Origin: Candidatus Versatilivorator sp.
GTDB lineage: Bacteria > Acidobacteriota > Terriglobia > Versatilivoradales > Versatilivoraceae
Length of the DNA stretch: 64,000 nt
Assembly (NCBI GenBank): GCA_965207735.1
Contig: OZ242296.1
Coordinates: 608,001 to 672,000 of the forward strand
Direction of reading: 5' to 3'
Shown in pieces: positions 25,989 to 44,746 of the stretch. Position 1 is the first letter of the stretch, and every line of letters begins with the position of its first letter. The notes under the pieces are model-generated. The model worked only from the letters and a program-made list of their open reading frames with translations, did not search any database and was not told the origin of the DNA. The position numbers and the translations under genes are program-made.

Positions 25989-27475
25989 GAGCCTTTTGCA
26001 AAATTCGGAATCGGGCATGACATTGGGCTGGCAACAGTGATGTTCCGGCGGTGACTACCCAGCTGCAAAGACCCTTTTGAAGGAAAAAGCCCGAATCTGA
26101 TGGCCGGATGGCCAGCGGTCGCCGGACGCAGGCACAGCTTACCCTCTCCCGGCCTTGAGGCGGGCGAACCTGCTGTGCGGTTGGGGGTGGCAACCCGGTC
26201 TTCAGAGCGTCAGGCGCATCAACTGATCCACCGTCAGGGCCAGAATGCCGAACATCAGGTGGCACCTCACCTTGTCGGGGCCGCGAACCCTCACCTGCCT
26301 CCCGCCAAACTCCTCCTTGAGCCGTCCGTTGACCCGCTCCACCGTCGAGCGTTCCCGGTAGCGCCGCGCCTCGGGAGTCACTTGGCCGATACAGCGCCGG
26401 GCCAGTGCCTCCCGCTTCCGCTCGGCTTTCAAGGTAGCTCTTCGGCGGGGGTTGACGTCAATAATCGGCACATGCCCCAGCTTCTCACTGAAGGCCCGGA
26501 TCTCCGGCGCATCGTAGGCGCTGTCCATCAAGTCGTAGAGACTCTCGACCCGCCTTGCCGTCAGCGTCGCCAGCGGAATGGCTGCCTGAGAGTCATGCAC
26601 CGAGGCCGAGGTCAGCAGACAACTGACCGGAATCCCGCCGTCAATGGCGTCGAGGTGTAGCTTGTAGCCGGTCCAGCTCTCCTGATGCCCCTTGGCGTTG
26701 CGCTTGACGCCGATGTCGCAGGCCTTGGGCAACTCCTTCAACATTTCCTCCAGCGTCATCGACCCCTGCCGCTCCAGCCGGCTCAACCGCTTGGGCCGTC
26801 GCTCGCCCTTCGGCGGCCGGCCCCGCCGGCGTTTCCGCTTGGCCTCCGGCGCAGCCTTGGCCGCTGGCTTTTCCCGTCCCGCAATCGCCGTCGAGTCCCT
26901 CGACACATGCCCCGCCAAGTGGCCCTTCAGCGTCTCCTCCAGCAATGCCTCGTGCAAACGCCCCGGCAGGTCGCTCTCAGCGAATTCCGCAAAGGCCCGC
27001 GAGAAGGTCGACTCGCTCGGTACCTCCCACGCCCTCTCCCAGCCGCACAGCCGCCGCAGCCTCCCCTCACTCCTCAGCCGCTCCACCAATCCCCGCGTGG
27101 TCGCCACCTCCAGCATCGACTTCGCCAGATAGGCTCGCGCCAGCACTGCCCGATCCTCCAGCGGCCGGCCACGCCAGCCCCGACTGTAAGGCAGCAACTC
27201 CTCCACCCGCACCAACTCCAATACCTGCACCAGCCGCTGGTAACGCTCTCCCAGAGGCCCCAAAACTTCCTCCAGCAGGGGAAACAGCTCTCGTTGAAAC
27301 CGGAACCAGTGTCGTGATAGGGTTTCCCTAAGGGGCAAGTTCCACCTCCGTTCATCATGTGGTTCAGACACCTTCATGATACAACAGACAGTGGTCTTGC
27401 CCCTCCTTCCACCTGCCCTCCTTGATCTTTCCCCACGTGAAAATTCCCGCTATCTGCGAATTTTGCAAAAGGCTC
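25989..27475 (-). mobile_element. IS (IS5/IS1182-like DDE), copy 1
   Basis: 18-bp terminal IR GAGCCTTTTGCAAAATTC, 4-bp TSD TGTC; appears identical to the copy at 49227-50713. Confidence 0.95.
26202..27377 (-). CDS. DDE transposase
   Basis: PSESTFSR, DSTAI, GYKLHL, DSAYD, VERVNGRLK motifs. Confidence 0.92.
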   Translation of the reverse strand: MKVSEPHDERRWNLPLRETLSRHWFRFQRELFPLLEEVLGPLGERYQRLVQVLELVRVEELLPYSRGWRGRPLEDRAVLARAYLAKSMLEVATTRGLVERLRSEGRLRRLCGWERAWEVPSESTFSRAFAEFAESDLPGRLHEALLEETLKGHLAGHVSRDSTAIAGREKPAAKAAPEAKRKRRRGRPPKGERRPKRLSRLERQGSMTLEEMLKELPKACDIGVKRNAKGHQESWTGYKLHLDAIDGGIPVSCLLTSASVHDSQAAIPLATLTARRVESLYDLMDSAYDAPEIRAFSEKLGHVPIIDVNPRRRATLKAERKREALARRCIGQVTPEARRYRERSTVERVNGRLKEEFGGRQVRVRGPDKVRCHLMFGILALTVDQLMRLTL

Positions 27476-28602
27476 TGTCGTATTTCCTTAATTTCTCGAA
27501 GCGGCCAATAGAGAAGACCTGTAGTTACCGCCGACGGCGTTGACCAAGCGAAATGCCCAGTAGCAAGTGCGACGAAGAAGCAACCGATTCCGGTGAGAAA
27601 CAGGGCAATCGTTAAGACGACGTACGTCCACTCAATCCGACGATTCTGTCGCAATACTTCATCGATACGCTGTAGAATTTGATCGATTGAGGCCATTGGA
27701 CGGCGTGTCTTGGCTAGCTAGCGGCTCACGGCCCACCGATGCCGGTGCTGAAAGAGAATTCAAGATTTTCCGGCCGCGGTCGAATGCAGCCTCGAATCGT
27801 CACTCCTGTGTTTCTCGCTACTGCCTGAATCGGTTTCATCAGCCCACCATCAGATCCAAAAGAGACCGTGGTAGCGACCAGACTTTATCTGGAACAATCG
27901 TTCTTGTCTCCCCCGAGATAGAAAATACAAACCCACGTTGGTGAAGGCGAGCACTTTTTCCTTCTCGCGGTCACTCCAGTTGCCCGAACCCCTTCCCTAG
28001 TTACCAGAGCCATAGAAGATCTGAAAAAAGGCTGGAAGGGAGCCGCATTTAGCGGTCTGCCCATTCAGTGAATTTTCTGGGGGAAAGTGGAAAATTCTCC
28101 GATTTTTTTAGGTCGCTTAACGGCCGTCTATTCCACAGTCTATGTCTCCCGCCAGACGAAACTGCTCCGGGACTGATGTTCTCCCTTGAGGGGATAAAGC
28201 AGATTGTAGTGAATCCACTAGCCCCCTATGCTGCGCCGGGCGTCGATCAGCTGATTCAGGGCATCGTGTTTATGTACGGCACGGGAGTTTGCCGATGATC
28301 TGTTCCGCGGATGGGTGCATGCCGCGCGATATCTCACCTGAATTGAAAGCCCCGATGGCGAGCAAACCAGCCGTTGCAGCAGCGATCCGAAAAGCCATCG
28401 ACATCGAGTTTCTCATCTACTCTATCGCCTTCCCGCAGGGAATGCCTATTCAGAATGGACTGATCGTCCAACCAAGTCCCATAATGTACATAACTGACTT
28501 ATCTACAGTCTTTTATGAGCATGCTTGAGCATCCATCCATTCCCATAGCGTCCCGCGCCATACGCTTGCATCCCACCTATTTCGGGGAGTATAATGGGGG
28601 GT

Positions 28603-29814
28603 ATGATGCTTTCCAGACGCTCCCCGCAACGCAAGCCCCCCGGCCAGCATCCCGACAACGCCCTCACGCCCCTCTTTGTCCGCAGCGTGAGCCAGGCCGG
28701 ACGCTATTGTGACGGCCAGGGGCTCTATCTCGACGTGCGTCCCTCCGGCAGCCGGGGCTGGATCCAGCGCCTCACCATCCGAGGCCGCCGCGCCGAGCTC
28801 GGGCTGGGCGGATTCCCCCTGGTCTCGCTGAAGGAAGCCCGGGAGAAGGCCTTCGCCAACCGGAAGCTGGCCCGGGAGGGCGGCGATCCCCTCTCGGAGA
28901 AGCGGCGGTCCGAGTCGACACCCACCTTTGCCGAGGCGACCTACCAGGTCTACAATCAGCTGCGGCCGGGCTGGCGCTCCCCTCAGCATGCCCAGCTCTG
29001 GCTCAGCAGCTTGGAGCGCTACGCCCTGCCCCGCATCGGCGGGATGCCGGTTTCCGAGGTGTCCAGTGCCGATGTGGTGGGGATTCTGGCTCCGATCTGG
29101 CACGAGACGGCGCCCACGGCCCGGAAGCTGCGCCAGCGCATCCGCGCGGTCATGGAGTGGGCGGTGGCGATGGACCTGCGGCCCGACAACCCCTGCGACA
29201 GGATCGGCCCGGTGCTGGGCGCACAGGGCAATGGCGTGCGCCACAGGCGGGCCTTGCCGCATCCCGAGGTGGCGTCGGCGATCGAGACGGTGCGGGCGTC
29301 GAGGGCGAGGCCGGCGGTGAAGCTTGCCTTCGAGTTCCTGGTGCTCACGGCGGCACGCTCCAGCGAGGTAAGCGGGGCGGTCTGGACCGAGATGGACTGC
29401 GACCAGGGTGTGTGGAGCATCCCGGCCCCGCGCACGAAGGGGAATCGCGAGCACCGGGTCCCGCTGTGCCGTCGTGCCCTGGAGATCCTGGAGGAGGCGC
29501 GGGGGCTCTCTCGCAGCAGTCCGTTGGTGTTTCCGAGCGTCAGGGGCAAGCCGTTCGCGATCACGACGCTGTCGGAACTGCTCCGGGAGTTGAACGTCGC
29601 GGCGGTGCCGCACGGCTTCCGGTCGAGCTTTCGGGACTGGGCGGCCGAAGAAACGGATCATCCTCGCGAGGTGGCGGAGGCTGCCCTGGCGCACAAGGTC
29701 CGCAGCCAGATCGAGGCGGCCTACCGGCGCTCGGACCTGTTCGAGCGTCGCCGGCGGCTCATGGATGACTGGGCCGGCTACCTGGCCGACCCGAGCCGAG
29801 GGCCGCAGGCCTAA
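28603..29814 (+). CDS. P4-like tyrosine integrase (arm-binding DUF4102-type N-terminus)
   Basis: DGQGLYL, LGLGGFP, LTAARSSE, HGFRSSFRDW, LAH, AYRR motifs. Confidence 0.93.
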   Translation: MMLSRRSPQRKPPGQHPDNALTPLFVRSVSQAGRYCDGQGLYLDVRPSGSRGWIQRLTIRGRRAELGLGGFPLVSLKEAREKAFANRKLAREGGDPLSEKRRSESTPTFAEATYQVYNQLRPGWRSPQHAQLWLSSLERYALPRIGGMPVSEVSSADVVGILAPIWHETAPTARKLRQRIRAVMEWAVAMDLRPDNPCDRIGPVLGAQGNGVRHRRALPHPEVASAIETVRASRARPAVKLAFEFLVLTAARSSEVSGAVWTEMDCDQGVWSIPAPRTKGNREHRVPLCRRALEILEEARGLSRSSPLVFPSVRGKPFAITTLSELLRELNVAAVPHGFRSSFRDWAAEETDHPREVAEAALAHKVRSQIEAAYRRSDLFERRRRLMDDWAGYLADPSRGPQA

Positions 29815-29880
29815 GCAGCGCTCGATGGCCGTGCGAGGCGGGGACAGCGGGGCCGGCGCCGCAACGCGTAGTGCCGGGGA

Positions 29881-29914
29881 GCCAGCCTACCCAATGTAAT
29901 ACATTGGGGCTGGC
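29881..29914. other. oriT-like palindrome
   Basis: GCCAGCC-TA-CCCAATGTA-A-TACATTGGG-GCTGGC nested inverted repeat followed by more hairpins; function inferred only. Confidence 0.35.
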
Positions 29915-30039
29915 GAGGGGCTCCGGCCCCTTCGAACCCCCGACCGGGGAGAGCTCTCCCCTAGCCCCTCCATCACCCCCCGCCGCTCCCTTCTCCCTCT
30001 CCCATGACCGAGGCCTCGATGGCGCGAGAAGCGACAGCG

Positions 30040-30427
30040 ACGAGGGTGTGTGGAGCATCCCGGCCCCTCGCACGAAGGGGAATCGCGAGCACCGGGTCCC
30101 GCTGTGCCGTCGCGCCCTGAAGATCCTGGAGGAGGCGCGGGCGCTCTCTCGCAGCAGTCGGCTCGTGTTTCCCGGCGTTGGGGGCAAGCCGATCGCGACC
30201 ACGACGCTGTCGGAACTGCTCCGGGAGTTGAACGTCGCGGCGGTGCCGCACGGCTTCCGGTCGAGCTTCCGGGACTGGGCGGCCGAAGAGACCGATCACC
30301 CTGGCGAGGTGGCGGAGGCCGCCCTGGCGCACAAGGTCCGCAGCAGATCGAGGCGGCCTACCGGCGCTCGGACCTGTTCGAGCGCCGCCGCCGGCTCATG
30401 GATGACCGGGCCGGCTACCTGGCCGGC
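30040..30427 (+). pseudogene. duplicated C-terminal fragment of the tyrosine integrase, frameshifted
   Basis: Closely similar to ~29400-29788 (GVWSIPAPRTKGNREHRVPL...HGFRSSFRDW); 1-nt deletion near 30346. Confidence 0.85.
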
Positions 30428-30478
30428 GGGTGTCGAGGGGCAGGACCGATCGGTTGATCGGCCCTGGCCTCGGCAGCG

Positions 30479-31013
30479 CTCGATGGCCTTCCCGCAAGGG
30501 ATCACTGTGGAGGGAGCGACCCCGGAAAGGGGAGGGGAGGTGGTGGATTTTGCCGTGCACCACCTCCCCCTCCCCGGTGCCGCACCAGCGGCCAAAATAC
30601 CGGGGTCGCTCCCTCCACTTCCTCCCCCTCCTGTGCGGCGCCACGACGCGCCGGGCGAGGGGGCGGACACGCGATGCCGACGCCCCACGGGGCTTTACCC
30701 CATAGGACTTGGGAAATCCGTGCCAACCCGCGTCCAATGCGGGTTTCCGGGAACAGCCTGGACCACGGCGGCGAGGGCTTCGCCCTCTGAGAGTGGAGCG
30801 TTGGGGTTGTCAAAAGCGTGAGCCACTTGGTGCGCCACCTACGTGAGCCACCCCCCTTTTGTAAGGTGGCCACCCATACGACGCCATGTCCTTGACCCCC
30901 GGAGGCGGAAATCGTCGATCATTCCTCGGCCGTTCGAGGCCGGGATTTCCTGCTCCCATTGGACGATCTTCTCCATGACGACATCGAGGCTGGCGTGGCG
31001 TTCGACGGTGTCC
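30479..31013 (+). repeat. structured ~530-bp module, copy A
   Basis: 19-bp perfect IR 30507-30525/30600-30618 with a nested stem, GTGAGCCAC-like triplet repeats; homologous to copies B and C. Confidence 0.85.
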
Positions 31014-31329
31014 TCCTGCACCCTGAATCCGCGAGCTTTGCCGGGCAGGCTGGACTTTCTCACTCCCTGGCAAAGCAGAACACCCCGAAACGCCTCCTGG
31101 ACCGATTCCCCTCTCAGGGACCGCAGGTCCCGCCGCCTGTGGGGAAACCGGAATGGTCGGCTCGCTCAGCGCTGCCGTGGTCGCAGCCTGGTCGTCGAAT
31201 CGTCCCGGTACGGCCATGAAGAGCCAGGGAAATCTGTTTTTTTTCGGGGGACATAATGGGGGGCAGGACATCGTCTGGAAACCCATAAGTCCTTTTCATA
31301 AAACGCTTTACATCAATCGCGGATGAATT

Positions 31330-31788
31330 CCGCAGGGATCACGGTGGTGAGAGCGACCTCCCCGCAAGGGGGGCAAAGGGTGTCCGGACCCCTGTCCCCC
31401 TTTGCCCTCCCCCGTGGCGCACCAGCGGCCAAAAAGGGGGGGGCGCTCTCACCACCAGCACCCCTCTCGTGCGGCGCGCCGTTGCGCCATGCGAGGGGGG
31501 GACTCGCGCGGCGCAGCCTCGCTTCGCGGTCTCGCATGGGACGCGGAAAATCCGTGGTGTCCCGTGTCTGATGCGGCGTTTCGGGAAAGTCCCACACCAC
31601 AACGGCGAGGACTCCGCCCTCTGAGAAAGAGGCGTTGTGCGGATCAAGATCATGTCACCCTTCGATGTCACCCCCCCCCTTCTGAAAGGGGGACACCCAT
31701 CTGACGGCATCTGCGTGACCCCCAGAGGCGGAAATCGTCGATCCATCCAGGTCCGGGCCGAGGCCGCCACGGCGTTCGACGGTGTTCC
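31330..31788 (+). repeat. structured module, copy C (diverged; its 5' tip lies at 28419-28441)
   Basis: Stem 31343-31355/31444-31456, conserved GCACCAGCGGCCAAAA, CGCCCTCTGAGA and GGCGTTCGACGGTGT blocks. Confidence 0.75.
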
Positions 31789-32310: not shown

Positions 32311-33231
32311 ATGGCTAATGAAGGAGAATGGGAAAACTGGCCGTACAAGGCAACAAGTTGCAACGTTAGCAAGGAGTTTAGCAAGGACTACGGAGAAATA
32401 TGGACGCTTGTGGTCGGAACGGCTGGTCAGTCGGAGCATTGGAAGCAGGGGACACCGGATTTGTGTCATGCCTTGGCGTGGATAGTTAACCAACTACACC
32501 TCGGCAATTGTGATGTAGCTGGCGAAGAGGACGGTGAAATTGTCTCTGTGTTAATTGGGCGAGGGACGCCTTTCGTATTCGGAGTTGAAGACAAAACAGG
32601 CGAAGAGGTAGTTGATGAAGCAAAAAAGCACCTCTATAAACGTTCACGTGCAGTGAATATCGCCGGCCTATTTGCACAGGCTAGAGAACGAGGAGTCAAA
32701 CCGAAGTACGGGGCACAGGCAGAGACGGTAAGACAGGTAGCAGGTGCCGATAGGAGCGGCCACTTCAATACTGAACTCCATTATGCTTTTCAACTCATCC
32801 ATATTCTCAAGAGGATTCGAGAAAGAAGTTTCGTTCTGGATTCACCTCCAATCTTGGGGAGAGCGTCAACCCGAGTTGTGGACTTACTAGGAGAAGCCAC
32901 ACGCTGTCACCTGTATGGCTTGCATCAAGCCAGTGTTGCCATATGCAGGGCATGCCTGGAAAAATCGCTGGCAGAGAGAGTTCCTAGGGAACAGGTACTT
33001 CAAGAAAGACTAAACAGTGGGAGCGGAGAATTGGAGTGCCTTATTGGTGCAGCATTCCGCTTGGGCTGTTTAGATGGTCCCCGTCATGAGATGGCGGATC
33101 AGATTAGGAAGCATGGCAATGATGTGTTGCACCGAGGGCATGTCCGAGGCGAGCGTTCTTGGGATATCTTGCTGAACACTAGGGCGGTTGTGTCGTACCT
33201 GTTCCGGGACCCAGATGAGGCAATTCCTTAG
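32311..33231 (+). CDS. DUF4145/HEPN-like domain protein
   Basis: C-terminal ASVAICRACLE and R..GN..LH (IRKHGNDVLH) pattern; N-terminal half unrecognised. Confidence 0.65.
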   Translation: MANEGEWENWPYKATSCNVSKEFSKDYGEIWTLVVGTAGQSEHWKQGTPDLCHALAWIVNQLHLGNCDVAGEEDGEIVSVLIGRGTPFVFGVEDKTGEEVVDEAKKHLYKRSRAVNIAGLFAQARERGVKPKYGAQAETVRQVAGADRSGHFNTELHYAFQLIHILKRIRERSFVLDSPPILGRASTRVVDLLGEATRCHLYGLHQASVAICRACLEKSLAERVPREQVLQERLNSGSGELECLIGAAFRLGCLDGPRHEMADQIRKHGNDVLHRGHVRGERSWDILLNTRAVVSYLFRDPDEAIP

Positions 33232-33450
33232 CACTCATGGGGTCTTCAGCGTCGGAAGCTGCGGCATCGCTTTTAGAGGTGTCGAGGTGTTCTGAATTGC
33301 TAGGCCTGGAGATATTGCAGCACAGGCGATTTTCGGAACTGTTCTTCCCGCGGATCGGATTTAAAATTTCAGTTCCCCTGTACGCGGCAAGACCTGCCGC
33401 CTGTGAGACGAAAATGAAGGCGGTCGCCGCTACGGGGAAAGGGACAGATT

Positions 33451-34557
33451 ATGAGAAACAAGCTTCATGCCATTACCCTTAAGGGATTCAAGACCATTCA
33501 AGAACTAAATGGCTTCGAGCCTGGTTTCCTGACGGTACTCATTGGACCCAATGGCGCGGGCAAGTCCAACTTCATCTCTTTCTTTCGTATGATGAGTTGG
33601 ATGCTGGCGGACCCTGACAATCTTCAATTTCACGTGGCGCAACATGGTGGAGCCAGCAAACTTCTGCACGACGGTTCGGACAGGACCCATGAAATTGAAG
33701 CCGAGTTAACCATTAAGACCGATGCAGGCGAGAACCAATATGCCTTCCGGTTGGTATTTGCGGCTGGCGATACGTTCATTTTTGCTGATGAGCGTTACCG
33801 TTTCTCTCGCAGTGATTACGGCGGTATTGCACCTTGGCGAGAAACGGGCGCCGGTCACCGCGCTCCGCAACTCCTGGACAGGGCCGCCGAGGACGATACC
33901 GCCCGCTTCATTCGAAACGTCCTAAGGAAGATAGTCTTATACCAATTTCACAACACGTCGGCCACAGCCCGCGTCCGGAGCAAGTGGAGCGTGAACGACA
34001 ACCGTTACCTAAAGGAAGATGCGGCCAATATCGCTCCAGTCCTGCTTCGCCTGAGGGAGGAAGATGGCAGGTGTTATCAGCGGATTGTAGCTACCGTCCG
34101 CCTGATCCTACCCTTTTTTTCGGATTTTGAACTGGAACCTGAGAACGGTCATCTGCTGCTTGCCTGGCGTGAACGAGACAGTGACCAGGTGTTCGATGTT
34201 TCGCAGGCGTCGGACGGCATGTTGCGGGTCATAGCGCTCGTCATGCTTCTCCTTCAACCGGAAGAGAACTTGCCGGACGTTTTGATTCTGGACGAACCGG
34301 AGCTTGGACTCCACCCCTACGCAACTACTGTGGTCGGTGGCCTGATTCGGGCCGTGTCCACGAAGGTCCAAGTCATTGTCGCCACTCAGTCCACGGCGTT
34401 CGTCGACTGCTTCGAGCCTGAGGACATCGTCGTGGTCGAGCGTGAAGGGCGAAAATCCATATTCCGACGGCTGGGTACCGAGGCTCTGGGAGAGTGGCTC
34501 AACGACTATACGCTTTCCGAGTTGTGGGGAAAGAACGTGCTCGGGGGGCGACCGTAA
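33451..34557 (+). CDS. ABC-type (AAA_21-like) ATPase
   Basis: Walker A GPNGAGKS, signature SDG, Walker B LILDEPE, ATQS. Confidence 0.9.
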   Translation: MRNKLHAITLKGFKTIQELNGFEPGFLTVLIGPNGAGKSNFISFFRMMSWMLADPDNLQFHVAQHGGASKLLHDGSDRTHEIEAELTIKTDAGENQYAFRLVFAAGDTFIFADERYRFSRSDYGGIAPWRETGAGHRAPQLLDRAAEDDTARFIRNVLRKIVLYQFHNTSATARVRSKWSVNDNRYLKEDAANIAPVLLRLREEDGRCYQRIVATVRLILPFFSDFELEPENGHLLLAWRERDSDQVFDVSQASDGMLRVIALVMLLLQPEENLPDVLILDEPELGLHPYATTVVGGLIRAVSTKVQVIVATQSTAFVDCFEPEDIVVVEREGRKSIFRRLGTEALGEWLNDYTLSELWGKNVLGGRP

Positions 34558-35234
34558 TGGCCGTAAGGTTACATTTCATCGTTGAAGGACAAACCGAAGA
34601 GACTTTCGTAAATCGGACCTTGCGCCCACACCTGGCGAATCTGTCCATTTGGGTGAAAGCCCGGTGTGTGATGACGAGTCGTAGGCGCGGCGTCAGGCAT
34701 CGCGGGGGAATAGGGAACTATTCGCAAGCGAAGAGAGACATCAATGCTTGGATGATGGAGGACCAGAACCCAGACGCACGCTTCACAACCATGTTTGATT
34801 TGTATGGGCTACCAGGAGACTTTCCCGGTTTCGAGAACGCTGCGCGAATGCCAGACCCCTATGAGCGCGTCAGTACACTGGAGGACGCTCTGAGCGAAAG
34901 TATCTCTGATTCGCGATTCATTCCCTATCTTCAACTTCACGAATTCGAGACGCTATTGTTGTCCGATCCTCAGAAGTTCGACTTGCAGTTTTACGATCGT
35001 AGTGTCGGGATACGGAGACTTGTGCAGGTCGCTTCTGGCTTTGAGTCTCCGGAGCGCATCAATGACGGAATCAGCACCGCCCCGTCGAAGCGAATTACTG
35101 ATGCAATACCAGAATATGGAAGAATGAAGGCGTCTGCGGGCCCCATCGTGGCCGAGAAGATCGGATTGCCTACTCTGCGATTGAAATGTGAGCATTTCGG
35201 GAAATGGCTTGGTAAATTGGAACGTCTCGCGTAG
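34557..35234 (+). CDS. DUF4276 family (TOPRIM-like) protein
   Basis: VEGQTEE, MFDLYG, HEFETLL, APSKRI, C.HF..W motifs; TAATG coupling to the ATPase. Confidence 0.85.
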   Translation: MAVRLHFIVEGQTEETFVNRTLRPHLANLSIWVKARCVMTSRRRGVRHRGGIGNYSQAKRDINAWMMEDQNPDARFTTMFDLYGLPGDFPGFENAARMPDPYERVSTLEDALSESISDSRFIPYLQLHEFETLLLSDPQKFDLQFYDRSVGIRRLVQVASGFESPERINDGISTAPSKRITDAIPEYGRMKASAGPIVAEKIGLPTLRLKCEHFGKWLGKLERLA

Positions 35235-35508
35235 GGATCGTAGGCTCGCGAAAAAGAGACTGACGGGACCAAGTAGTACCGATAGCGGGCGGAAGGGGAC
35301 CACGGATAACGGAGCAAGTATCGCCATCTTCTTTGTAGGCAACCTCGCTGGCGCGGTCTACAGGGGCGAGATCACGTCTTGTTTTGGTGTTGCGTTCGAG
35401 GTCGCGCTTGAGCTTTTCAAACTCAAAGTGCAGGGAGCACTGGTGCCGGGAAGTGACCCAATCAAAGTCTACACCTCTATTTACGACAGTTCATTAATGA
35501 CATGACAC

Positions 35509-35715
35509 CAGTATTGTCCGGTTAAGCTTTCGTGACTTTAGTGTAACAGGCGTAATTCCAACAGGTTACGAGTAGGAATGAGTGTTTTCGACTTAGTATC
35601 ACCCTTTTCGAAAAAGTCTCTATGAATCAGGTACTTACGAGATTCCCTTTGCAACACGAAGACTCCCAATCTTGTAAGCAGTTGATATTATTCGAGTTTT
35701 AACCGGACAGTACTG
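35509..35715. mobile_element. MITE (IS4-like ends), 207 bp
   Basis: IR CAGTATTGTCCGGTTAA / TTAACCGGACAGTACTG; 9-bp TSD ACATGACAC (35500-35508, 35716-35724); no ORF. Confidence 0.85.
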
Positions 35716-35794
35716 ACATGACACTAGTAATTCGCTGAATCCAAACCTGCCTCGGCTGTGTTTCCCATACGCACCCTCAGTTCAATTCTGGCTT

Positions 35795-36646
35795 TCATAG
35801 CTTCTCGAAGAATTCTGGGCTCGGTGTAACAACTTCTATAGTCTCAGTGCTCACCCCTAGTTTGAGCTCTCTCAGGAGTGCACACAGATCAACGCCGTTA
35901 ATGAGATCGATAGCTGGTGCTCCATCCCTTACGGCCTCGCGTTCAGCATCTCGGGTATACCCTCCTGTAGTCATAAAGAGTCCCTTATCTGCTCGGCCGA
36001 CCATAGCTCCCCTAAAATCTCTGATCTCGGGTGCTCCGACAGCACCAGAGTACCTTTTGCACTGAAAACGGACATGAAAAGAAATGAGATTAACCCTCAA
36101 TACGCCAGCGCCATCGATTCCGCCATCTCCTGAACGGCCTGTTACTTCTACCGTTGTGAACCCTGATTCGCGAAGGATCAGTTGGCATAGACGCTCGAAC
36201 GCATCGGGATTCATGCGGCGAACGATGTTTAGCAGAGAATCTTTCCAATCCTGCGCGTCGGTCACAGCATCGTCTTTCAATTTGAGCTTGGAAACCCGAT
36301 GTTGCCTTTCTTTACTTCTCTTAGCGCGATCGTCACGAACAAGTTTCCTTATCTGTTTCTCGGAATAAATTTTTCGCCCAACCTCTGAAATTGTCCAAAC
36401 CCCTCTCGTCGTATTGTCGATTGCTCCAACAAACTTAAGGTGTGTGCGGGCCCATGCCGCGCGGTAGTCAACTTCGGATTGAGGCCCGTTTTTGTGTGGG
36501 GTACTCAACACTTCGTCCGTCAATTTCAGATCGGAAGCCACGCTTCCTGACAATTCTTGAATCGAGGCGGACCCCCCTTTACTCTTCAATGCCTTTAGGG
36601 TTGGCCAGAGCAAGTCGTCAAATGTGGGAAGGTCAGTATGAGGCAT
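35795..36646 (-). CDS. mrr: Mrr type IV restriction endonuclease
   Basis: Mrr N-terminal wHTH (WARTHLK) plus catalytic FERLC, GDGGIDG, QCKRY, IRDFRGA. Confidence 0.92.
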   Translation of the reverse strand: MPHTDLPTFDDLLWPTLKALKSKGGSASIQELSGSVASDLKLTDEVLSTPHKNGPQSEVDYRAAWARTHLKFVGAIDNTTRGVWTISEVGRKIYSEKQIRKLVRDDRAKRSKERQHRVSKLKLKDDAVTDAQDWKDSLLNIVRRMNPDAFERLCQLILRESGFTTVEVTGRSGDGGIDGAGVLRVNLISFHVRFQCKRYSGAVGAPEIRDFRGAMVGRADKGLFMTTGGYTRDAEREAVRDGAPAIDLINGVDLCALLRELKLGVSTETIEVVTPSPEFFEKL

Positions 36647-36967
36647 GCTTTCCTCTCCTAGAAAATTTGCCTATGTTGGGTCGAAATATTCAGCTCTGCA
36701 CAAGTTTCTCGATTCTGCCAATCGAGTTCTCCGCCAGTTCTACGCAAACAGAAATTGTACCGCCCCTGGTTTCTTGGACAGATAAGGCCCACCATACTCA
36801 ACCGGCCGGTTGCAAGGCAAGACGGGGGGTCAAAGTATTTGCTGTCCCATAGGACCCGCAACATCTCGACCTCACCCGGCGCCTTCTCCAGGCCTGGACA
36901 ACACGAGGCATGGCAGCGGCAAAGCCAGACGCGCATAGGCGCCGGCAAGGCATCTCTGATGCCGATT

Positions 36968-37491
36968 GGGACACCGTCGAAAGCCACGGCGGCTTCAATG
37001 CGGTCGTAAGGAAAATCTTTCAACGGGAGCAGGAAAACCCGGCCTCCAACGGCCGCGAAATGATCGACGCTTTGCGCCTCCCGGGGTCAAGGACGTGGCG
37101 TCGTATGGGTGGCCACCTTTCAGACGGGGGGTGGCTTACACAGGTGGCTCACCAAGTGGCTCACGCTTTTGACCACCCCAACGCTCCTCTCTCAGAGGGC
37201 GAAGTCCTCGCCGTCGTGGTCCAGGTTGTGCCCGGAAACCCGCATTGGAAGCGGGTTGGCACGGATTCCCCGTGTCCTCTGCGGCAAAGCGTAGTGCGGC
37301 GCCGGCGCCACCTCGCACGGTGCGTCGTGGCGTCGCACAGGAGGGGGAGCAAGTGGAGGGAGCGACCCCGGGTTTTTGGCCGCTGGTGCGGCACCGGGCG
37401 GGGGGAGGTGGTGCACGCCAAAAACCACCACCACCCCTCCCCGGCGGGGTCGCTCCCTCCACAGTGATCCCTGGCGGGAAGGCTATCGAGT
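36968..37491 (-). repeat. structured module, copy B (inverted relative to A and C)
   Basis: Reverse complement matches 30479-31013 along its length. Confidence 0.85.
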
Positions 37492-37759
37492 CGGCCAGCA
37501 AGCCGAGACCGCCACGTCGACCACAGGCGGTGCGCTACGCGCACGAGACGCCGACTCAAGCAGCAACAACGCGAATGCGGTGCGGGTCGAAACAGGTGCC
37601 GCCATGCAACATAGCCCAGGCGACGTTCAGTAGCCGGTCGAGCACCGAACGCAGACCACGCAAATGACCGTGCATTCCCACATTCTGGCGTGGATGCGAA
37701 GGACGAAGCCTTGATTGCAACGCAATCGTCGTATAGGCTTGAGCTTAGGAGGTGCGACA

Positions 37760-38002
37760 ATGGCTAACATCACGATCCGCAATCTCGACGACGATGTTAA
37801 ATCCCGGCTGCGCGTACGTGCGGCGGAAAACGGCCGTTCCATGGAAGAGGAGGCGCGCTTGATCCTCCGGGATGCGGTCGGACGCAAACTTGGTTCCAAT
37901 AACCTCGCGAACATCATCCGTGCGCACTTCGGGCCGTCCAACGGCGTGGATCTTGAGTTGCCACCGCGCGATGCAGGCCGCGAGCCACCGTCCTTCGATT
38001 GA
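37760..38002 (+). CDS. FitA-like ribbon-helix-helix antitoxin
   Basis: MANITIRNLDDDVKSRLRVRAAENGRSMEEEAR. Confidence 0.9.
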   Translation: MANITIRNLDDDVKSRLRVRAAENGRSMEEEARLILRDAVGRKLGSNNLANIIRAHFGPSNGVDLELPPRDAGREPPSFD

Positions 38003-38012
38003 GGAAACAGCC

Positions 38013-38435
38013 GTGATCCTGCTTGACACCAACGTCGTATCCGAATTGATGCGCGCGTCGCCGAACCCAGCAGTTGAGGCTTGGGTTGCCGGTTATCCCG
38101 TCGAGGACCTGTTCTTCTCGGCGGTTAGCGAGTCCGAACTGCGCTATGGAGCCGCCATCATGCCGGCAGGCCGGCGCCGTGAGACGCTCGTCGCGGATAT
38201 TGAGACGATGCTGCACGCGGCCTTCGAGAACCGCATATTGCCGTTTGACAGCGGGGCGGCACGCGCCTATGCGTTCATCGCCGCCAAGCGCCGGTTCGCA
38301 GGGCGCGCTGTCGCACCGGCGGACTGCCAGATCGCAGCGATCGCCCGGGCGCGGGGCATGGAGGTGGCGACGCGCAACGTTCGGGACTTCGAGGACATGG
38401 GGATCGAAATAATCGACCCATGGGACGGCGCATGA
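38013..38435 (+). CDS. vapC: VapC/FitB PIN-domain toxin
   Basis: LLDTNVVSE, ELRYG, DCQIAA, ATRNVRDF motifs. Confidence 0.92.
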   Translation: MILLDTNVVSELMRASPNPAVEAWVAGYPVEDLFFSAVSESELRYGAAIMPAGRRRETLVADIETMLHAAFENRILPFDSGAARAYAFIAAKRRFAGRAVAPADCQIAAIARARGMEVATRNVRDFEDMGIEIIDPWDGA

Positions 38436-40573
38436 CCGGAACGACTGAAGCCTTTTCCCGTGTCAAGATTGACGCCCTGCTGAAGGATGCCGGCTGGAAC
38501 CTCACTGACGGGGTGAGTGTCCTCTTCGAGCACGCGTTGCCGGACGGCACACAGGCTGACTATGTGCTCTGCGACCGGTCGGGGCGCCCTTTGGCGGCAC
38601 TGGAAGCCAAGCGCGCCAGCATCAATCCCGTCGAAGCCCGAGGCCAGGGATGTCACTACGCAGGGCAACTCGACGTTCCGTTCGTCTTCCTGTCGAACGG
38701 CGAGGAAGTATGGTTCCTGGACCGCGACACGGACGCGCATGCCCGGAAGATCTCAGGCTTCTATTCCCAGGACGACCTGGAACGGCGGATTGCCGTGCGC
38801 AAGGTCCGCCGGAACCTGTCGAGCGTTGCAATCGACAGAAAGATTGTCGATCGCGACTACCAGATCGATTGCATCGAATCGCTTTCTGCCGAAATTTTGC
38901 GCGGACGCCGCAAGCTGCTGGTCGAGATGGCAACAGGAACCGGAAAGACCCGAACGGCGGCGGCTCTCATCAAGCGCCTGTTCGAGGCCGGCATCGTCAC
39001 GCGCGTCCTGTTTCTCGTGGACCGGATCGCCCTGGCGGGGCAGGCTGAGGATGCGTTCGCGGACCATCTCCGCGACTATCCCTGTCATGTGTTGCGGCCT
39101 GGCCGGGGGTTCGACCGTGCCAAGCGCATCACGATTGCGACCTTGCAGACCATGATTGCAGAGTACCGGGAACTGTCGCCGGGTTACTTCGATCTGGTGA
39201 TCACTGATGAATGCCACCGCTCGATATACGGCAAGTGGAGCGGCGTGCTCCGGCATTTCGACGGCATCCAACTGGGGTTGACCGCCACGCCATGCACCGC
39301 CGAGGAGGATGCGGTTGGCGACCCCGAGGACGGTCTGTTCGTGCGCGACACGCTGCGGTTTTTCGAGCTGGAGAGGCCGACTTTCCGCTACATGCTACGT
39401 CAGGCCATCGATGCGGGCCATCTCGTTCCCTACCGCATCTACAAGGCAAGGACGGTAAAGACCGCTGCCGATGATGGGTTCTCGGTCGGCCGCAACGAAC
39501 TCGACTGGAGCGCCATGGCCCCCGCCGCAAAGGCGGAGTTCGAGGAACTGTTCTCCGAATCGGACAACATCACCGTGGACCCGCGAGCGCTGGAACGCAA
39601 ATTCACGATTCCCGAGCGTAACCGCGCCTTGGTGCGCGAGTTTCGTGACTGCTTCGAAAAAGGGTTCATGGGAAAGGACGGGGTCAGGCGCGTACCGACC
39701 TGGGGCAAGACCATCGTGTTCGCCGTTACGAGACGCCATGCGGAGACGCTTGCACAGATGTTCGACCAGCACTTTGCAGATCTGAAGCTGAATCCAACGA
39801 CACGCTTCGCCGATTTTGTGATCAGCGATGTGGGCGACGGGCCTGGACCGGATGCAAGCGCTATCATCAAGCGTTTCAAGGAGGAGCAGTTTCCGCAGAT
39901 TCTGGTCAGCGTGAACATGCTCGATACCGGCTTTGACTGCCCGGAGGTGGTCAATCTGGTGATGGCGCGGTTCACCAAGAGCGGTATCCTCTACCGGCAG
40001 ATGCGGGGCCGCGGGACGCGCAAGGCCGACCACATTGGCAAGACCGGCTTTACGATCTTTGATTTCGTGGGTGTGACGGATTTCCATGGCGACGACGATG
40101 ACGACATTGAGGGAGGAATTCTGAGGGAAAGGCCAAAGCGTTACGGGCCGGATGATCCGCGTCTGTTGCTGACCCTCGACGTGGACGACCATATCGATCC
40201 CACGACCCGCGACTGGGTGACTCTCGACGAGAACGGCCGGATCGTGCGTACTCCGGAGCACGAGGCGCGGGCAGCCGACATCGGCTTGCGCGTCGAGGCC
40301 TGGCGAGGCGGGCAAGGGTTCACCACTGCGGAACAGACCCGCTGGGCTGGGCTGATCGGAAGCCGGGTAAAGGCCGATGCCCTGAACATCAAATCTTTCG
40401 GGGATTACGATTTCGACGAGCATCCGTTCACCACCCTGGGAGGGTATGATCAGGCGCGGCGAGTCTTCGGAGGCGAGGAATCTCTGGGTATGCTGATCGC
40501 CGGGTTCAACGCGGCGGTGTTCGGGCACGGTGACGCGACTGACCGGCCCGGTGGCAGCCACCCCATGGCTTAA
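38432..40573 (+). CDS. hsdR: type I restriction enzyme R subunit
   Basis: ADY..LEAK nuclease motif, MATGTGKT, DECHRS, LTATP, MLDTGFD, QMRGRGTR. Confidence 0.92.
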   Translation: MTGTTEAFSRVKIDALLKDAGWNLTDGVSVLFEHALPDGTQADYVLCDRSGRPLAALEAKRASINPVEARGQGCHYAGQLDVPFVFLSNGEEVWFLDRDTDAHARKISGFYSQDDLERRIAVRKVRRNLSSVAIDRKIVDRDYQIDCIESLSAEILRGRRKLLVEMATGTGKTRTAAALIKRLFEAGIVTRVLFLVDRIALAGQAEDAFADHLRDYPCHVLRPGRGFDRAKRITIATLQTMIAEYRELSPGYFDLVITDECHRSIYGKWSGVLRHFDGIQLGLTATPCTAEEDAVGDPEDGLFVRDTLRFFELERPTFRYMLRQAIDAGHLVPYRIYKARTVKTAADDGFSVGRNELDWSAMAPAAKAEFEELFSESDNITVDPRALERKFTIPERNRALVREFRDCFEKGFMGKDGVRRVPTWGKTIVFAVTRRHAETLAQMFDQHFADLKLNPTTRFADFVISDVGDGPGPDASAIIKRFKEEQFPQILVSVNMLDTGFDCPEVVNLVMARFTKSGILYRQMRGRGTRKADHIGKTGFTIFDFVGVTDFHGDDDDDIEGGILRERPKRYGPDDPRLLLTLDVDDHIDPTTRDWVTLDENGRIVRTPEHEARAADIGLRVEAWRGGQGFTTAEQTRWAGLIGSRVKADALNIKSFGDYDFDEHPFTTLGGYDQARRVFGGEESLGMLIAGFNAAVFGHGDATDRPGGSHPMA

Positions 40574-40586
40574 TGAAGGCATTAAG

Positions 40587-42215
40587 ATGCCCATGACCCC
40601 TGAACTTCGGCGCGGGATCGACCGCATCCGCGATTACCTGTTCGGCGGCGGTTACCCCAACCCCGCCCAAAACGCCGAGCAGCTAAGCTTCCTGATCTAC
40701 TTCTACATGTATGAGGCAGCGGACGCTGCGCGCGTGCGTGCCGCGAGGCGTCCGGGCACCGAACCCCATGTCAGCGTCTTCGACGGCAACTGGGACCTGC
40801 GCAACCCGCGCAATGCCCGCGAGCCGGGCGTCGAGGTGGTTCCGCGCGAACTGCTGCGCTGGTCCTCCTGGGCGCATGCGCTCAACGGCGAGCGGTTGGT
40901 GAACTGGGTGAGGGAGGAGGTCTTTCCTTTTCATGCCGAGCTTGCGGCCGGAGGCGTTACGGACTTCATGGACGGCGCGCGGCTGGTGATCGACGAGCCG
41001 ACGGTGCTCACCCAGGTTGTCAGCCAGTTGAACGACCTGCATCTCGACCGGGTAGACGCAGACACGAAAGGCGACCTGTTCGAGCATGTGCTGCGCCAGA
41101 TCCGGCAAGCGGGCGAACTCGGTCAGTTCCGCACGCCGCGTCATGTCATCCGCGCCCTGGTCCGCCTCGTTGATCCCCGAATTGGGGAGACAGTCTTTGA
41201 TCCGGCGGCGGGCACGGCCGGATTTCTTGTCGGTGCGTGGGACCACATCCGGCTGGCGAATTCGTCGCCCGCCGGCACCGAGGAAGTCGAAGCCGATGGC
41301 AAGACGGTGCAGCGGGGCCTCGGTGACATGCTGAGCCGTGACGCGGTACGCCAACTGCACGAAGCGACCTTCTATGGGTCCGATGTGGACCCGCAGATGG
41401 TCCGGCTTGCGACCATGAACCTGACACTGCGAGGCCTGGAAAGGGTGCGCGTCCTGCGCCGGGACGCACTAACCCGTTCGCTTGACCGTGCTGCCAAGGC
41501 AGAGCTTGGTCTGCCGACGCATGGATTCGATGTCATCCTGGCCAATCCGCCCTTTTCCGGGCGGCTGGACAAGGACCGTATTGTCGAGGAAGTGAAAATT
41601 GGACGCACGGCGCAAACCGAGCTTCTGTTCCTGCAATACATGCTGAACCACCTGACGGAGCGCGGGAGCTGTGGTGTCGTGGTGCCCGAAGGAGTGCTGT
41701 TCGGCTCTACCAGCGCACACAAGGAACTGCGCCGCCGGCTGGTCGAAAACAACACGGTCGAGGCCGTGCTGTCCCTGCCCGGGGGAGTCTTTAATCCCTA
41801 TTCCGGCGTCAAGACCTCGGCGCTGGTCTTTCGCAAGGGCGGCGCGACCCAACGGGTGATGTTCCTGCACGCTGACAATGACGGTTTCAAGCTCGACGCC
41901 AACCACGATCAGCCAATCGAGCAGGACGATCTGCCCGGACTGATCGGAGCTTTCCGAGACCGGGAGGCGGGCTGGAGGCAATGGAGCGACCGCGACCCTG
42001 AGACCGACTGGACCGAAAAGTGGTGGTTTGCCGGAGCCGACGCCATACGTGCTGCAGATTTCAATCTGAGCGCGGGGCGCCACCGGCCGCAGAACCGCTC
42101 GAAAGTCGAACACCGCGATCCTCTGGAAATTCTGGATGAATTGCGGACTATCGAGACGGAAATCCTCGGAGAGATCGAGGAGCTTGCCGATGCAGTGAGG
42201 GAGAAAGCTGGATGA
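40587..42215 (+). CDS. hsdM: type I restriction-modification N6-adenine methyltransferase
   Basis: GQFRTPRH, DPAAGTAGFL, NPPF, PEGVLF motifs. Confidence 0.95.
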   Translation: MPMTPELRRGIDRIRDYLFGGGYPNPAQNAEQLSFLIYFYMYEAADAARVRAARRPGTEPHVSVFDGNWDLRNPRNAREPGVEVVPRELLRWSSWAHALNGERLVNWVREEVFPFHAELAAGGVTDFMDGARLVIDEPTVLTQVVSQLNDLHLDRVDADTKGDLFEHVLRQIRQAGELGQFRTPRHVIRALVRLVDPRIGETVFDPAAGTAGFLVGAWDHIRLANSSPAGTEEVEADGKTVQRGLGDMLSRDAVRQLHEATFYGSDVDPQMVRLATMNLTLRGLERVRVLRRDALTRSLDRAAKAELGLPTHGFDVILANPPFSGRLDKDRIVEEVKIGRTAQTELLFLQYMLNHLTERGSCGVVVPEGVLFGSTSAHKELRRRLVENNTVEAVLSLPGGVFNPYSGVKTSALVFRKGGATQRVMFLHADNDGFKLDANHDQPIEQDDLPGLIGAFRDREAGWRQWSDRDPETDWTEKWWFAGADAIRAADFNLSAGRHRPQNRSKVEHRDPLEILDELRTIETEILGEIEELADAVREKAG

Positions 42216-43384
42216 CGGTCTCAGTATCGCTTGGTGAAATCTGCAATTTCATAGGCGGAGGTACGCCGTCTCGCAAAATCAAAGAATACTGGAACGGTGA
42301 TATCCCTTGGGCCACCGTCAAAGATTTTCAATCAGATCGCATTTCTAAGACTCTGGAATTCGTCTCGCGAGAGGGATTGGAAAACTCAGCTTCTAAAGTG
42401 GTCCCGTCTGGAACCGTTCTTCTGGTCACGAGAGTCGGGTTGGGTAAGGTCGCAATTGCTGATGTCGATATTGCTATCAATCAGGACATCAAGGCCGTAT
42501 TTCCCTCCGAGGACATCTTGCCAGAGTTTTTGTTGTGGGCTTTGAAACATTTAGGTCCAAAGATAGAAGCCAAGGGGACAGGAGCGACGGTCAAAGGAGT
42601 CACCTTGCGAGATATCAAGGAAATGGAGGTCCCCCTCCCGCCGCTCGACGAGCAGAGGCGGATCGTCGGCATCTTGAACCGGGCGGCGAAGATCGAGCGG
42701 CTGCGAGCGAAGGCCGCCGACCGGTTGCGGGAATTCGTTCCCGCGCTGTTCATCAAGATGTTCGGCGGTCCGGTTGAGAATCCGATGGGGTGGGAGGTCC
42801 GCATGCTTGAAGAGATCTGTATTTCCGCCCAATACGGCACCAGCAAAAAGGCTTCAGAGCATGTTGGAGGCATACCAATATTGCGGATGGGTAATGTCAC
42901 CTACGATGGCTATCTGGATTGCGACTCAATAAATCTGAAATATGCCCAGCTTGAAGATAGCGAGATCAAGAAGTATGTGCTTCATTCTGGAGACATTCTT
43001 TTCAACAGGACAAACAGTAAGGATTTGGTCGGAAAGACCGGGATATGGGATGGACGCTTTGAAGCTGTTCCAGCCTCATATTTCATTCGTTTGCGAGTCG
43101 ATCACGCTGTGATTCACCCAACATATCTTTGGGCATTTATGAACTCGAGCGCCGTGAAGCAGCGCCTATTCGAAATGGCACGCGGAGCGATCGGGCAAGC
43201 GAATATCAACGCAAAGGAACTCAAATCGATACGAGTTCCGGTACCGTCAATTGACGAGCAGCTGCGATTTGCAAAGATGGTCGCTGTCGCTCGAACCGTC
43301 TCCAATCTCTGTGATTCCAGTTCCAACGTCGCATTGGCGCTGAGTACGTCTCTCATCGCCCGCGTGCTGGGTCAGACTGCATGA
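42212..43384 (+). CDS. hsdS: type I restriction-modification specificity subunit
   Basis: Two TRDs, GGGTPS, PLPPLDEQRRI, PVPSIDEQ motifs. Confidence 0.93.
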   Translation: MTVSVSLGEICNFIGGGTPSRKIKEYWNGDIPWATVKDFQSDRISKTLEFVSREGLENSASKVVPSGTVLLVTRVGLGKVAIADVDIAINQDIKAVFPSEDILPEFLLWALKHLGPKIEAKGTGATVKGVTLRDIKEMEVPLPPLDEQRRIVGILNRAAKIERLRAKAADRLREFVPALFIKMFGGPVENPMGWEVRMLEEICISAQYGTSKKASEHVGGIPILRMGNVTYDGYLDCDSINLKYAQLEDSEIKKYVLHSGDILFNRTNSKDLVGKTGIWDGRFEAVPASYFIRLRVDHAVIHPTYLWAFMNSSAVKQRLFEMARGAIGQANINAKELKSIRVPVPSIDEQLRFAKMVAVARTVSNLCDSSSNVALALSTSLIARVLGQTA

Positions 43385-43533
43385 CCGACATTGCGGACAA
43401 CAAGCGGCGAAGCGAGTCCATGGCGAGAATTCGCGGACGCGACAATGCTCCCGAGCTCGCGGCTCGCTGCATTGCTCACCCGATGGGAATGCGTTTCCCA
43501 CAGTGCCGCAAGGCCCACCCGGCCGCTCGGTAA
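43381..43533 (+). pseudogene. vsr: truncated Vsr very-short-patch repair endonuclease
   Basis: MTDIADNKRRSESMARIRGRDNAPELAAR..AH.MGMRF resembles the Vsr N-terminus; stop after 50 codons. Confidence 0.7.
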
Positions 43534-43693
43534 TGGAAGTCTCGAGTCCTGGGATCGTCATTCAACCAACTCGGCCGACTAGCCTGCTCGCCGCTCAGCT
43601 TGGCGGAGATCCAGTCGATGCAGTAATATCGAAACCAATGGATCACCCCGTCGGATCCGGATAGGGCGATGATCTGGTAAACGGAGGTGTGAA

Positions 43694-44746
43694 ATGGTTC
43701 ACTTGAGCAAGTTTAGTGCCGTCCATTACCGCGGCATCGATGGTGTCTCTTTGCCTCATTTGTCCAAGGCCAACTTGGTCACGGGCGCAAATGGTGTCGG
43801 TAAGACAGCATTGATCGAGGCAATGTGGCTATTCACAGGACGACACAATCCCAGCTTACTGTGGAACGCGAACGTGCAGCGTACCTTTAGTCCGTCTGTG
43901 GATCCGATCTCCCGGCTGACCGACAGAGGGGTGGTGCTTCGCGGTGTAGAGAAGGGAACATGTCACGAAATAAAATTCGTTTTCGAGGGACTAGGTGGCG
44001 CTTCCCCAAACGTCAGGATCACAGGTACCCTCCAAGAGGATTCGAAGAGGCTACCTCCGGTTGTCGGATTCATCCGTACCTACCTTGACGGCAAGCTCTT
44101 GACGAAAGAGCCTGAGGGCATGCAACTAACGCCTTCAGGGGTAGTGCTACATCAATCCCCGAGAGCGTCAGTAGGACGTCCCAGCTGTGTCATCGAGAGC
44201 ACTAGATTTCAACATGAGACTCCGGCTGAGTACCTTCAGAGATACTCGAGTCTGGTCAGAGAAGGTCTCAAGAAGGAGCTAGTGAAAGCCATCAATCTGG
44301 TTGCGGAGGGAGTTGAGGACCTGGAGATGCTGACAGACGACACCGGGGAGTCGTATCTGTCAGCAACGATTACGGACGGAAAGCCACGACCACTTCACGA
44401 CCTCGGAGGTGGAGCTGTCAGACTGGTTCGACTGCTACTCGGCTTTTCTGCCGCCCGAGATGGTATTCTGCTGTCGGACGAATTGGAAAATGGTATCCAT
44501 CACTCCGCGCAGCGAGAAATTTGGGATAGAGCACGCCAATGGATGGATCAATGGAACGTGCAATTTGTAGCAACGACCCACAGTGGCGAGTTCATCGATG
44601 CGGCGATTGATGCCTTTGCTGATAACCCGAATGATCTGTCCATCCACAAGCTCTTCCGTAACGAGAATGCAGGACGAACGGAAGTTGCGACGTTCACCGG
44701 ACACGCACTCGCTGGGGCACGCGACCTAGACCTGGAGATCCGGTAA
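43694..44746 (+). CDS. ABC-type (AAA_15/AAA_21-like) ATPase
   Basis: GANGVGKT, LGGG, LLSDELENGIH, ATTHS motifs. Confidence 0.88.
   Translation: MVHLSKFSAVHYRGIDGVSLPHLSKANLVTGANGVGKTALIEAMWLFTGRHNPSLLWNANVQRTFSPSVDPISRLTDRGVVLRGVEKGTCHEIKFVFEGLGGASPNVRITGTLQEDSKRLPPVVGFIRTYLDGKLLTKEPEGMQLTPSGVVLHQSPRASVGRPSCVIESTRFQHETPAEYLQRYSSLVREGLKKELVKAINLVAEGVEDLEMLTDDTGESYLSATITDGKPRPLHDLGGGAVRLVRLLLGFSAARDGILLSDELENGIHHSAQREIWDRARQWMDQWNVQFVATTHSGEFIDAAIDAFADNPNDLSIHKLFRNENAGRTEVATFTGHALAGARDLDLEIR

Follow-up and report, generated by a model that had tools for sequence, protein, structure and literature searches.

The DNA analyzed here (the window) is a stretch of 64,000 nucleotides from Candidatus Versatilivorator sp. 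(GenBank assembly GCA_965207735.1, contig OZ242296.1, positions 608,001 to 672,000), and it contains a 2,897-bp unit that splits a repeated DNA module. The unit is probably a relaxase-free integrative element whose P4-type tyrosine integrase uses a conserved 13-bp dyad at the edge of the likely origin of transfer (oriT) of an integrative and conjugative element (ICE), and which carries its own copy of that region. The insertion point is fixed at one base, the target is found in intact ICEs as well as in chromosomal modules, the unit carries a module copy, and relatives of the unit have inserted into one another in a nested fashion.

The sequence-only reading that preceded this analysis had proposed that one module copy (copy C) was split by a unit of about 2.9 kb with a P4-like integrase and arm-like repeats near both ends. 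Joining 28419–28441 to 31339 onward through the shared core reads as it stated, and the split itself is borne out by replicate units at the same base, and the integrase by its Pfam domains. By junction comparison, the left flank of the split target (28419–28432, plus strand) ends in the B half-site CCTTC and is followed by the left attachment (attL) core CCGCAGGGA (28433–28441, plus strand), of which the first seven bases would form the strand-exchange overlap; the overlap positions co-vary at both junctions of relatives. The unit runs from this core to the attR core CCGCAGGGA (31330–31338, plus strand), these being the only two occurrences in the window, and the body of module C follows at 31339–31754 (plus strand), with a 25-codon remnant of the open reading frame ORF2 on the minus strand (31680–31754). 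A homologue of the 200-nt left flank, 69% identical, adjoins another module start (genome 1120616–1120846). The 9-mer by itself proves nothing, as its 131 matches in the genome are not beyond chance. An identical second unit (2,888 of 2,888 interior bases) at genome position 1013903 splits another module at the same base, with a left flank unrelated to that in the window (28% ungapped identity), and a third copy at 2498948, 91–97% identical, splits a module likewise. Further single ends are present in this genome, where five left ends have the overlap CCGCAGG or CCACAGG. The arm-like repeats lie where they had been placed (28584–28601 and 31246–31263), are identical at 15 of 18 positions, and are the sole matches to their pattern in the window. 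The rejoined site had been said to match the two intact copies A and B; the sequences are similar, but a one-base gap separates CCC-GCA-GGG from CCC-GCAA-GGG in copy A and CCC-GCCA-GGG in copy B. Likewise, the unit does bring in a module, copy A, but this is not a duplicate of the site used: it is only 69% identical to copy C and is therefore carried cargo rather than a duplication made on insertion.

The integrase gene (28594–29814, plus strand) encodes 406 amino acids with all three expected domains, Arm-DNA-bind_3 (PF13356), Phage_int_M (PF22022), and Phage_integrase (PF00589), and with the motifs that we take to be the catalytic R, K, HxxR, H, and Y. Apart from it, the gene content of the unit is limited to a broken integrase duplicate and a 52-codon ORF2 stub, without any relaxase or mating-pair formation (MPF) gene. 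There is no tRNA at the junctions.

The insertions recur across genomes. Matches to the left arm numbered 23 in 7 of 14 genus genomes, and those to the right arm 28 in 10 of 14. All 18 readable left junctions (19 listed, one at a contig end) end in a CTTCC-type core, while 22 of the 24 listed right junctions start with the core and 18 continue straight into the module. Of 49 loci whose integrases are at least 76% identical, 34 have the same core at the same distance from the integrase gene (38 loci fit the core pattern, less four with another flank type). These integrases come from records titled Acidobacteriota, Gemmatimonadota, and Gammaproteobacteria, which are metagenome bins and may be mis-binned; the nearest relatives (90–98%) come from records with Candidatus Versatilivoraceae in the title. 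Core type followed the tree in a FastTree phylogeny of 94 integrases (seven loci and short translations left out), with 15 changes against 53.8 when shuffled, and 34 of 34 rows with this core fell in one 49-row clade, alongside sister rows with other cores. The distance from core to integrase gene equals that of the different cores of sister integrases. These observations uphold the proposal of a non-tRNA attachment system, since close homologues mostly share the same non-tRNA core and many other insertions were found at it. An occupied standard site (locus L087) also has an empty paralogue (L099). A scan of the collection for left junctions at cores one or two bases longer gave at least 120 loci, and among those listed neither an integrase nor a match to an arm was present; these matches resemble chance, and one is an intact module.

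Integrases outside this core type have their own preferences. The genome of the window (G000) has about 25 further P4-type integrases, 62–68% identical, at other non-tRNA cores (GCCGCCGCAAC, TTCCCGTGCAG, and TAGCCGCGTAG types), and several of their left flanks resemble REP (repetitive extragenic palindromic)-type palindromes. A subclade of the same integrase clade (L160, L162, L171, L172, L175, L177) has switched to a different repeated target, with ends GCAACGCAGTCCG / GCATCCCGGCGGG and insertion in either orientation. Sister integrases of Vicinamibacterales records (L127–L133, L136, L157, L159, L178) target the virB11 start or ardC within this family of ICEs, and a virB8 stub, a complete ORF2, the module, and pieces of the coupling gene are carried by many of those elements. 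Another sister type (L114, L574–L576) is inserted in the coupling-protein gene near codon 240–260.

The target module is a segment of an ICE. Its profile has 87 matches in the genome of the window, 44 of them near full length; these modules are mosaic, and their left flanks switch at the same point as the insertion. One lies inside a complete ICE of this genome (about 1839.6–1863 kb), where the gene order is integrase, primase-helicase, virB3, B4, B9, B10, B5-like, B6, B8, ORF2 (315 aa), module, VirD4-type coupling protein, virB11, RepB-type primase, ardC, and Replic_Relax-like. The module thus consists of the 3′ end of ORF2 and a hairpin-rich spacer of about 340 bp reaching up to the coupling-protein gene, and the invariant half of its core, GGAAGG, stands 7–13 bases ahead of the start codon of that gene. 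Among 79 loci with the N-terminus of the coupling protein (80 were fetched by this protein), an integrase of the clade sits exactly at the core in 4. Intact sites have the standard core length in 69 of the 70 counted, a number that excludes the four occupied sites, three pattern mis-hits, one interrupted spacer, and one site without a core. ICEs split between the coupling gene and ORF2 are seen at L409/L115 and at L577.

Several properties point to the role of this segment. Elsewhere in the genome the module is present 33–52 times, compared to 5–6 times for ORF2 and the coupling-gene start and 0–4 times for the rest of the ICE, so that it is the sole amplified ICE segment. Most copies persist apart from the coupling gene, in elements that bear an integrase, and stubs of the two neighboring genes often accompany them. 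The spacer folds strongly (z −5.3, as DNA), and the antisense strand folds slightly better in eight of nine tested. Its inverted repeat has an invariant AGCGACC/GGTCGCT center and compensated flanks, is 98.6% paired in 35 sequences, and shows 27 two-sided changes against 5.0 in shuffles that do not control for relatedness. Two sources on MOBC systems place oriT upstream of the coupling gene, or else between the MPF and relaxase genes (PMC2262945; 10.64898/2026.01.13.699239). The amplification of the module alone, its fold, the covarying inverted repeat, and this placement together make it fairly likely, as judged from sequence, that the module is the oriT of the ICE. The suggestion that one element parasitizes the origin of a related one fits with a target on the border of the spacer, likely the oriT, that precedes the coupling-protein gene. 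One class of modules in this genome (4566028, 5055282, 2869547, and others) has a small open reading frame beyond the core, presumably ribbon-helix-helix–like; the copy tested had no Pfam match.

ORF2, which adjoins virB8 in this ICE family, has 1,988 homologues (for example, L086:1195–2142 and L002:4933–5928). It gave no sequence match in Pfam, NCBIfam, or PDB, no Foldseek match at E 0.001, and no profile match to the Replic_Relax-like protein of the ICE, and its Atlas neighbors are all unnamed. MOBC relaxases are characterized by a winged helix and a restriction-endonuclease-like fold that bears a catalytic acidic motif. The structural model of ORF2 (pLDDT 78.8) combines a winged helix with a restriction-endonuclease-like domain; the best structural match, SdaI, is weak (Z 7.8, rmsd 3.7, 118 aligned), and both it and the ArsR/MarR-type winged helices (Z about 7) fall under the caution level of the tool, Z 8. 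Because of this predicted fold, and because five near-complete copies stand beside modules in integrase elements, ORF2 is a candidate for a relaxosome protein.

The seven bases after CCTTC vary among elements (CCGCAGG, CCGGAGG, CCGTAGG, CGGGACG, CCGCTAG, CCGCAAG). Of 24 paired elements, 18 (17 by script, and L409) have the same seven bases left and right, the pattern that a strand-exchange overlap would give, and the integrase would make its junctions through this 7-bp overlap. The carried core, in turn, differs from the own overlap of the element in all 25 elements with a readable carried core. This number comprises 22 of 22 (after a false pattern match, L436, was dropped) plus the G043 element, L569, and L585, and includes two pairs of near-identical elements at different sites. 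Conversely, in three elements whose own overlap is a variant, namely L556, the inner element of G041, and L569, the carried core is the common standard one. The carried bodies form three clearly distinct clades, all of them next to local ICE modules, and the carried cores are one or two bases longer in 13 of the 13 that were placed in the module tree. Among exact-pattern intact modules, the common overlap accounts for 18 of 28 and 18 of 29 in two genus genomes, where no module with this overlap is the carried copy of an element using it, and for 3 of 16, 1 of 7, and 0 of 3 in three further genus genomes.

Nested insertions were observed in relatives. In G041, an inner element of 9,832 bp, with CCGCAAG left and right, is contained in an outer one of 27,150 bp whose overlap is CCGCAGG. 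When the empty site of the inner element is rebuilt, it can be aligned through the junction to carried modules that are intact in relatives (75–79%), and its target core is that of copy A in the window. An inversion as the source of the reversed attR in G041 was rejected, because a matching attL and an integrase share its strand. The one-base-longer cores had suggested that carried copies are absolutely immune; this was rejected as well, as the G041 element sits in a carried long-core copy. At L457, a further integrase end lies within the carried module of the inner element; the same module is empty in L437, the two being identical at 1,998 of 2,017 bases left of that site. The occupied and empty pairs looked for across genomes were thus found twice, here and at L087/L099. 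L554 is a third nested case, with unequal overlaps, and L570 has a left end in a carried-type flank. Several attR-plus-module junctions stand in a row on one strand without a matching attL at L087, L092, G005, and G011, which suggests past nesting followed by deletion. The nested accretion envisaged by the sequence-only reading therefore occurs in three cases in the genomes of relatives, but not in the genome of the window. Its further idea, that each insertion brings a new target, stands insofar as carried copies are hit by relatives; it does not extend to the carrier, whose overlap is unlike the carried one, nor to every element, as seven paired elements lack a module core. A carried copy is likely a target for relatives with another overlap and not for its carrier.

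These observations suggest a mechanism. The integrase would excise the unit as a circle, the relaxase of a helper ICE would act on the carried module and transfer the circle, and in the recipient the integrase would insert the unit at any module with a matching overlap, whether in an ICE, another integrative element, or an island. The carried copy is thus predicted to let the unit hitch on the transfer machine of the ICE. A carried copy with the unit's own overlap would place an attB on the same circle as attP, so that the integrase could resolve the excised circle into two or bring about an inversion, and selection would favor a different overlap. Relatives whose attP has drifted to the carried variant could then insert there, giving rise to Russian-doll islands. 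Since insertion would part the module body from the coupling gene, leaving GGAAGG, it may also silence transfer of the host until excision. More tentatively, and with slightly less than even confidence, the whole may be regarded as a self-extending attachment system in which the carried copy of the transfer origin doubles as an attachment site and the 7-bp overlap serves as an address that bars self and admits relatives, so that variants diversify and build nested, co-mobilizable islands across three phyla.

Other explanations have to be weighed against this evidence. It is very improbable that copy C was split by homologous recombination or relaxase-mediated joining between modules rather than by the integrase. 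The 44 near-full-length mosaic modules in the genome and the change of module left flanks at one point would lend themselves to such exchange, but neither arm of the element has homology to the module, a finding that excludes homologous recombination; furthermore, arm repeats flank both ends, the distance from core to integrase gene is as in sister integrases, and core type follows the integrase tree. It is also possible, though unlikely, that the module is not an oriT but a structured regulatory leader, a single-strand origin, or an ORF2-binding site, with the integrase using a conserved ribosome-binding dyad; the targeting would be the same. The invariant GGAAGG close ahead of the coupling-protein start codon, the strong fold with its slightly better antisense strand, and the RepB-type primase encoded by the ICE are compatible with such a role, and a search of the window with Rfam at the gathering threshold returned two tRNAs only and no family on the module. 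However, a cis-acting mobilization signal would be expected to survive apart from the coupling gene, inside elements that bear an integrase, as most copies do.

A third alternative concerns only the mismatch between own and carried overlaps, which could be a by-product of module capture and shared descent instead of selected self-avoidance, with nesting being opportunistic. We consider this doubtful, although less so than a module without oriT function. In its favor, many carried copies have one common left flank, long-core modules are common outside the clade in G000, and some unequal junction pairs show that mismatch is tolerated. Yet the carried bodies belong to three separate clades near local ICE modules with longer cores throughout, three variant-overlap elements carry the common standard core, and this common overlap makes up about six in ten intact modules in two genomes without ever being carried by its user.

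Several observations weigh against an oriT-targeting element with selected self-avoidance. Because 6 of the 24 paired junctions have unequal overlaps, strict overlap homology is uncertain: either mismatch is tolerated or ends have decayed, and a mismatched carried copy may lack full protection. In addition to the seven paired elements without a module core, noted above, long cores also predominate among the modules of G000 elements that have other integrases, and because the 25 elements are related, part of the overlap pattern could be due to shared descent. L564 is a possible counter-case, a direct module with the same overlap as the downstream attR, where no attL was seen. Carried copies in the genome of the window are all unoccupied, and no excisionase was found in the unit. 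The Replic_Relax match of the ICE protein lies below the Pfam cut-off (E 0.002). Among 15 of 45 joints listed, in contigs of four runs, there was no attP circle or empty-site joint, which is not evidence either way.

The remaining features complete the picture of the unit and its surroundings. The P′ arm (28442–28601, plus strand), which ends in the first arm-type repeat, is conserved in all left junctions and is without module homology, and the P arm (31246–31329, plus strand) begins with the second. Repeat X (29815–30032, plus strand) contains the 16-nt left flank of copy A and short matches to the module interior, and is probably an internally deleted module remnant, to judge from these matches. 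It is followed by a duplicate of the integrase C-terminus (residues 268–403; 30033–30439, plus strand), frameshifted and 88–90% identical, which the sequence-only reading had not mentioned. Copy A (30478–31012, plus strand) has its core at 30487–30501 with the overlap CCGCAAG and one extra base, an inverted repeat of AGCGACC (30515) and GGTCGCT (30604), and the 52-codon 3′ remnant of ORF2 on the minus strand (30857–31012). Repeat Y (31020–31245) is present behind many module copies. Copy B lies outside the unit (36814–37491, minus strand) and has the overlap CCGCCAG, one extra base, and an ORF2 remnant. The unit itself resides in a host island at tRNA-Ser (24904–46826), whose limits are marked by a 13-bp direct repeat (24904, 46814). 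This island encodes a separate P4-type integrase on the minus strand (45472–46650), 41% identical to that of the unit. The island has defense cargo at 32311–45408, comprising a HEC-01-like pair, Mrr, PIN, type I restriction-modification, and a PDC-M38-like pair. Two identical-looking copies of a DDE transposase (IS5/IS1182-like Pfam set) are at 26202–27377 and 49440–50615.

P4-type integrase elements usually integrate at a tRNA or tmRNA gene. The unit fits these Arm-DNA-bind_3 elements in its intact integrase domains and catalytic residues, its direct repeats of the core, and the arm repeats inside them, whereas its target is an intergenic dyad of an ICE. If the proposed interpretation is true, inserting in the transfer origin of a helper while carrying a copy of it would be one rule for building nested islands without tRNA sites, and a candidate oriT and a 13-bp attachment dyad would be named for a widespread, apparently undescribed ICE family. 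The overlap variants would form a natural series for testing how a tyrosine integrase tells self from target, and could serve as a set of orthogonal attachment sites. In the literature outside most subscription journals and supplements, we found no description of this ICE family, of nesting into a carried copy of the target, or of an element with its attachment site in a region that it carries.

Compared to known systems, which are summarized here from the available parts of the sources, the closest parallel is IME_oriT, a group of small integrative and mobilizable elements (IMEs) of streptococci and Staphylococcus aureus that have the oriT region of ICEs or of further IMEs as their specific target, apart from some secondary sites, and that are proposed to silence host transfer until excision (PMC7563843). 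Both are small, site-specific integrative elements with an ICE as host; for the unit, the target region is a putative oriT and the ICE a predicted helper. However, IME_oriT encode their own Rep_trans/MobT relaxase and target the nic stem-loop in Firmicute ICEs with MobT; these hosts are of the Tn916/ICESt3/ICE6013 type (MobT, TcpA). The unit encodes no relaxase; its integrase is of the P4 type, it brings along a copy of the region that it targets, and it inserts at the edge of an oriT-like spacer. Its host combines an MPF-T system (VirB3/4/6/8/9/10/11) with a coupling protein of the VirD4 type and a Replic_Relax-like protein. For IME_oriT, the available part of that source does not describe nested insertion into a carried copy. 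Since relaxase and host type differ, the unit works like IME_oriT but is not a member. A second parallel is with the mobilizable genomic islands (MGIs) of Vibrio, GIE492-type islands, and iOriTs, which combine an integrase with a copy of the oriT of the helper and defense or other cargo, without a relaxase (PMC5704250; 10.64898/2026.01.13.699239). The unit likewise has an integrase and attachment sites, no relaxase or MPF genes, and an ICE spacer with a putative oriT role. Those islands integrate at chromosomal sites or in tandem, in contrast to the unit, whose attachment site lies inside the copied region; every element can therefore also be a landing site. The Firmicute IMEs listed as inserting in conserved genes of ICEs, traG/VirD4 for example, have serine integrases and intragenic sites (PMC5704250). 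They share with the unit the habit of site-specific parasitism on ICE conjugation loci, and its sister integrases hit virB11, ardC, and the coupling gene, but the clade of the unit has a tyrosine integrase and an intergenic site. Finally, in the tandem accretion of ICESt1 and cis-mobilizable elements (CIMEs) and in SGI1 arrays, new elements enter the attL or attR of a resident (PMC5704250; PMC2297512). In all of these, repeated site-specific insertion builds composite islands; in the relatives of the unit, by contrast, entry is into an internal carried copy with a different overlap.

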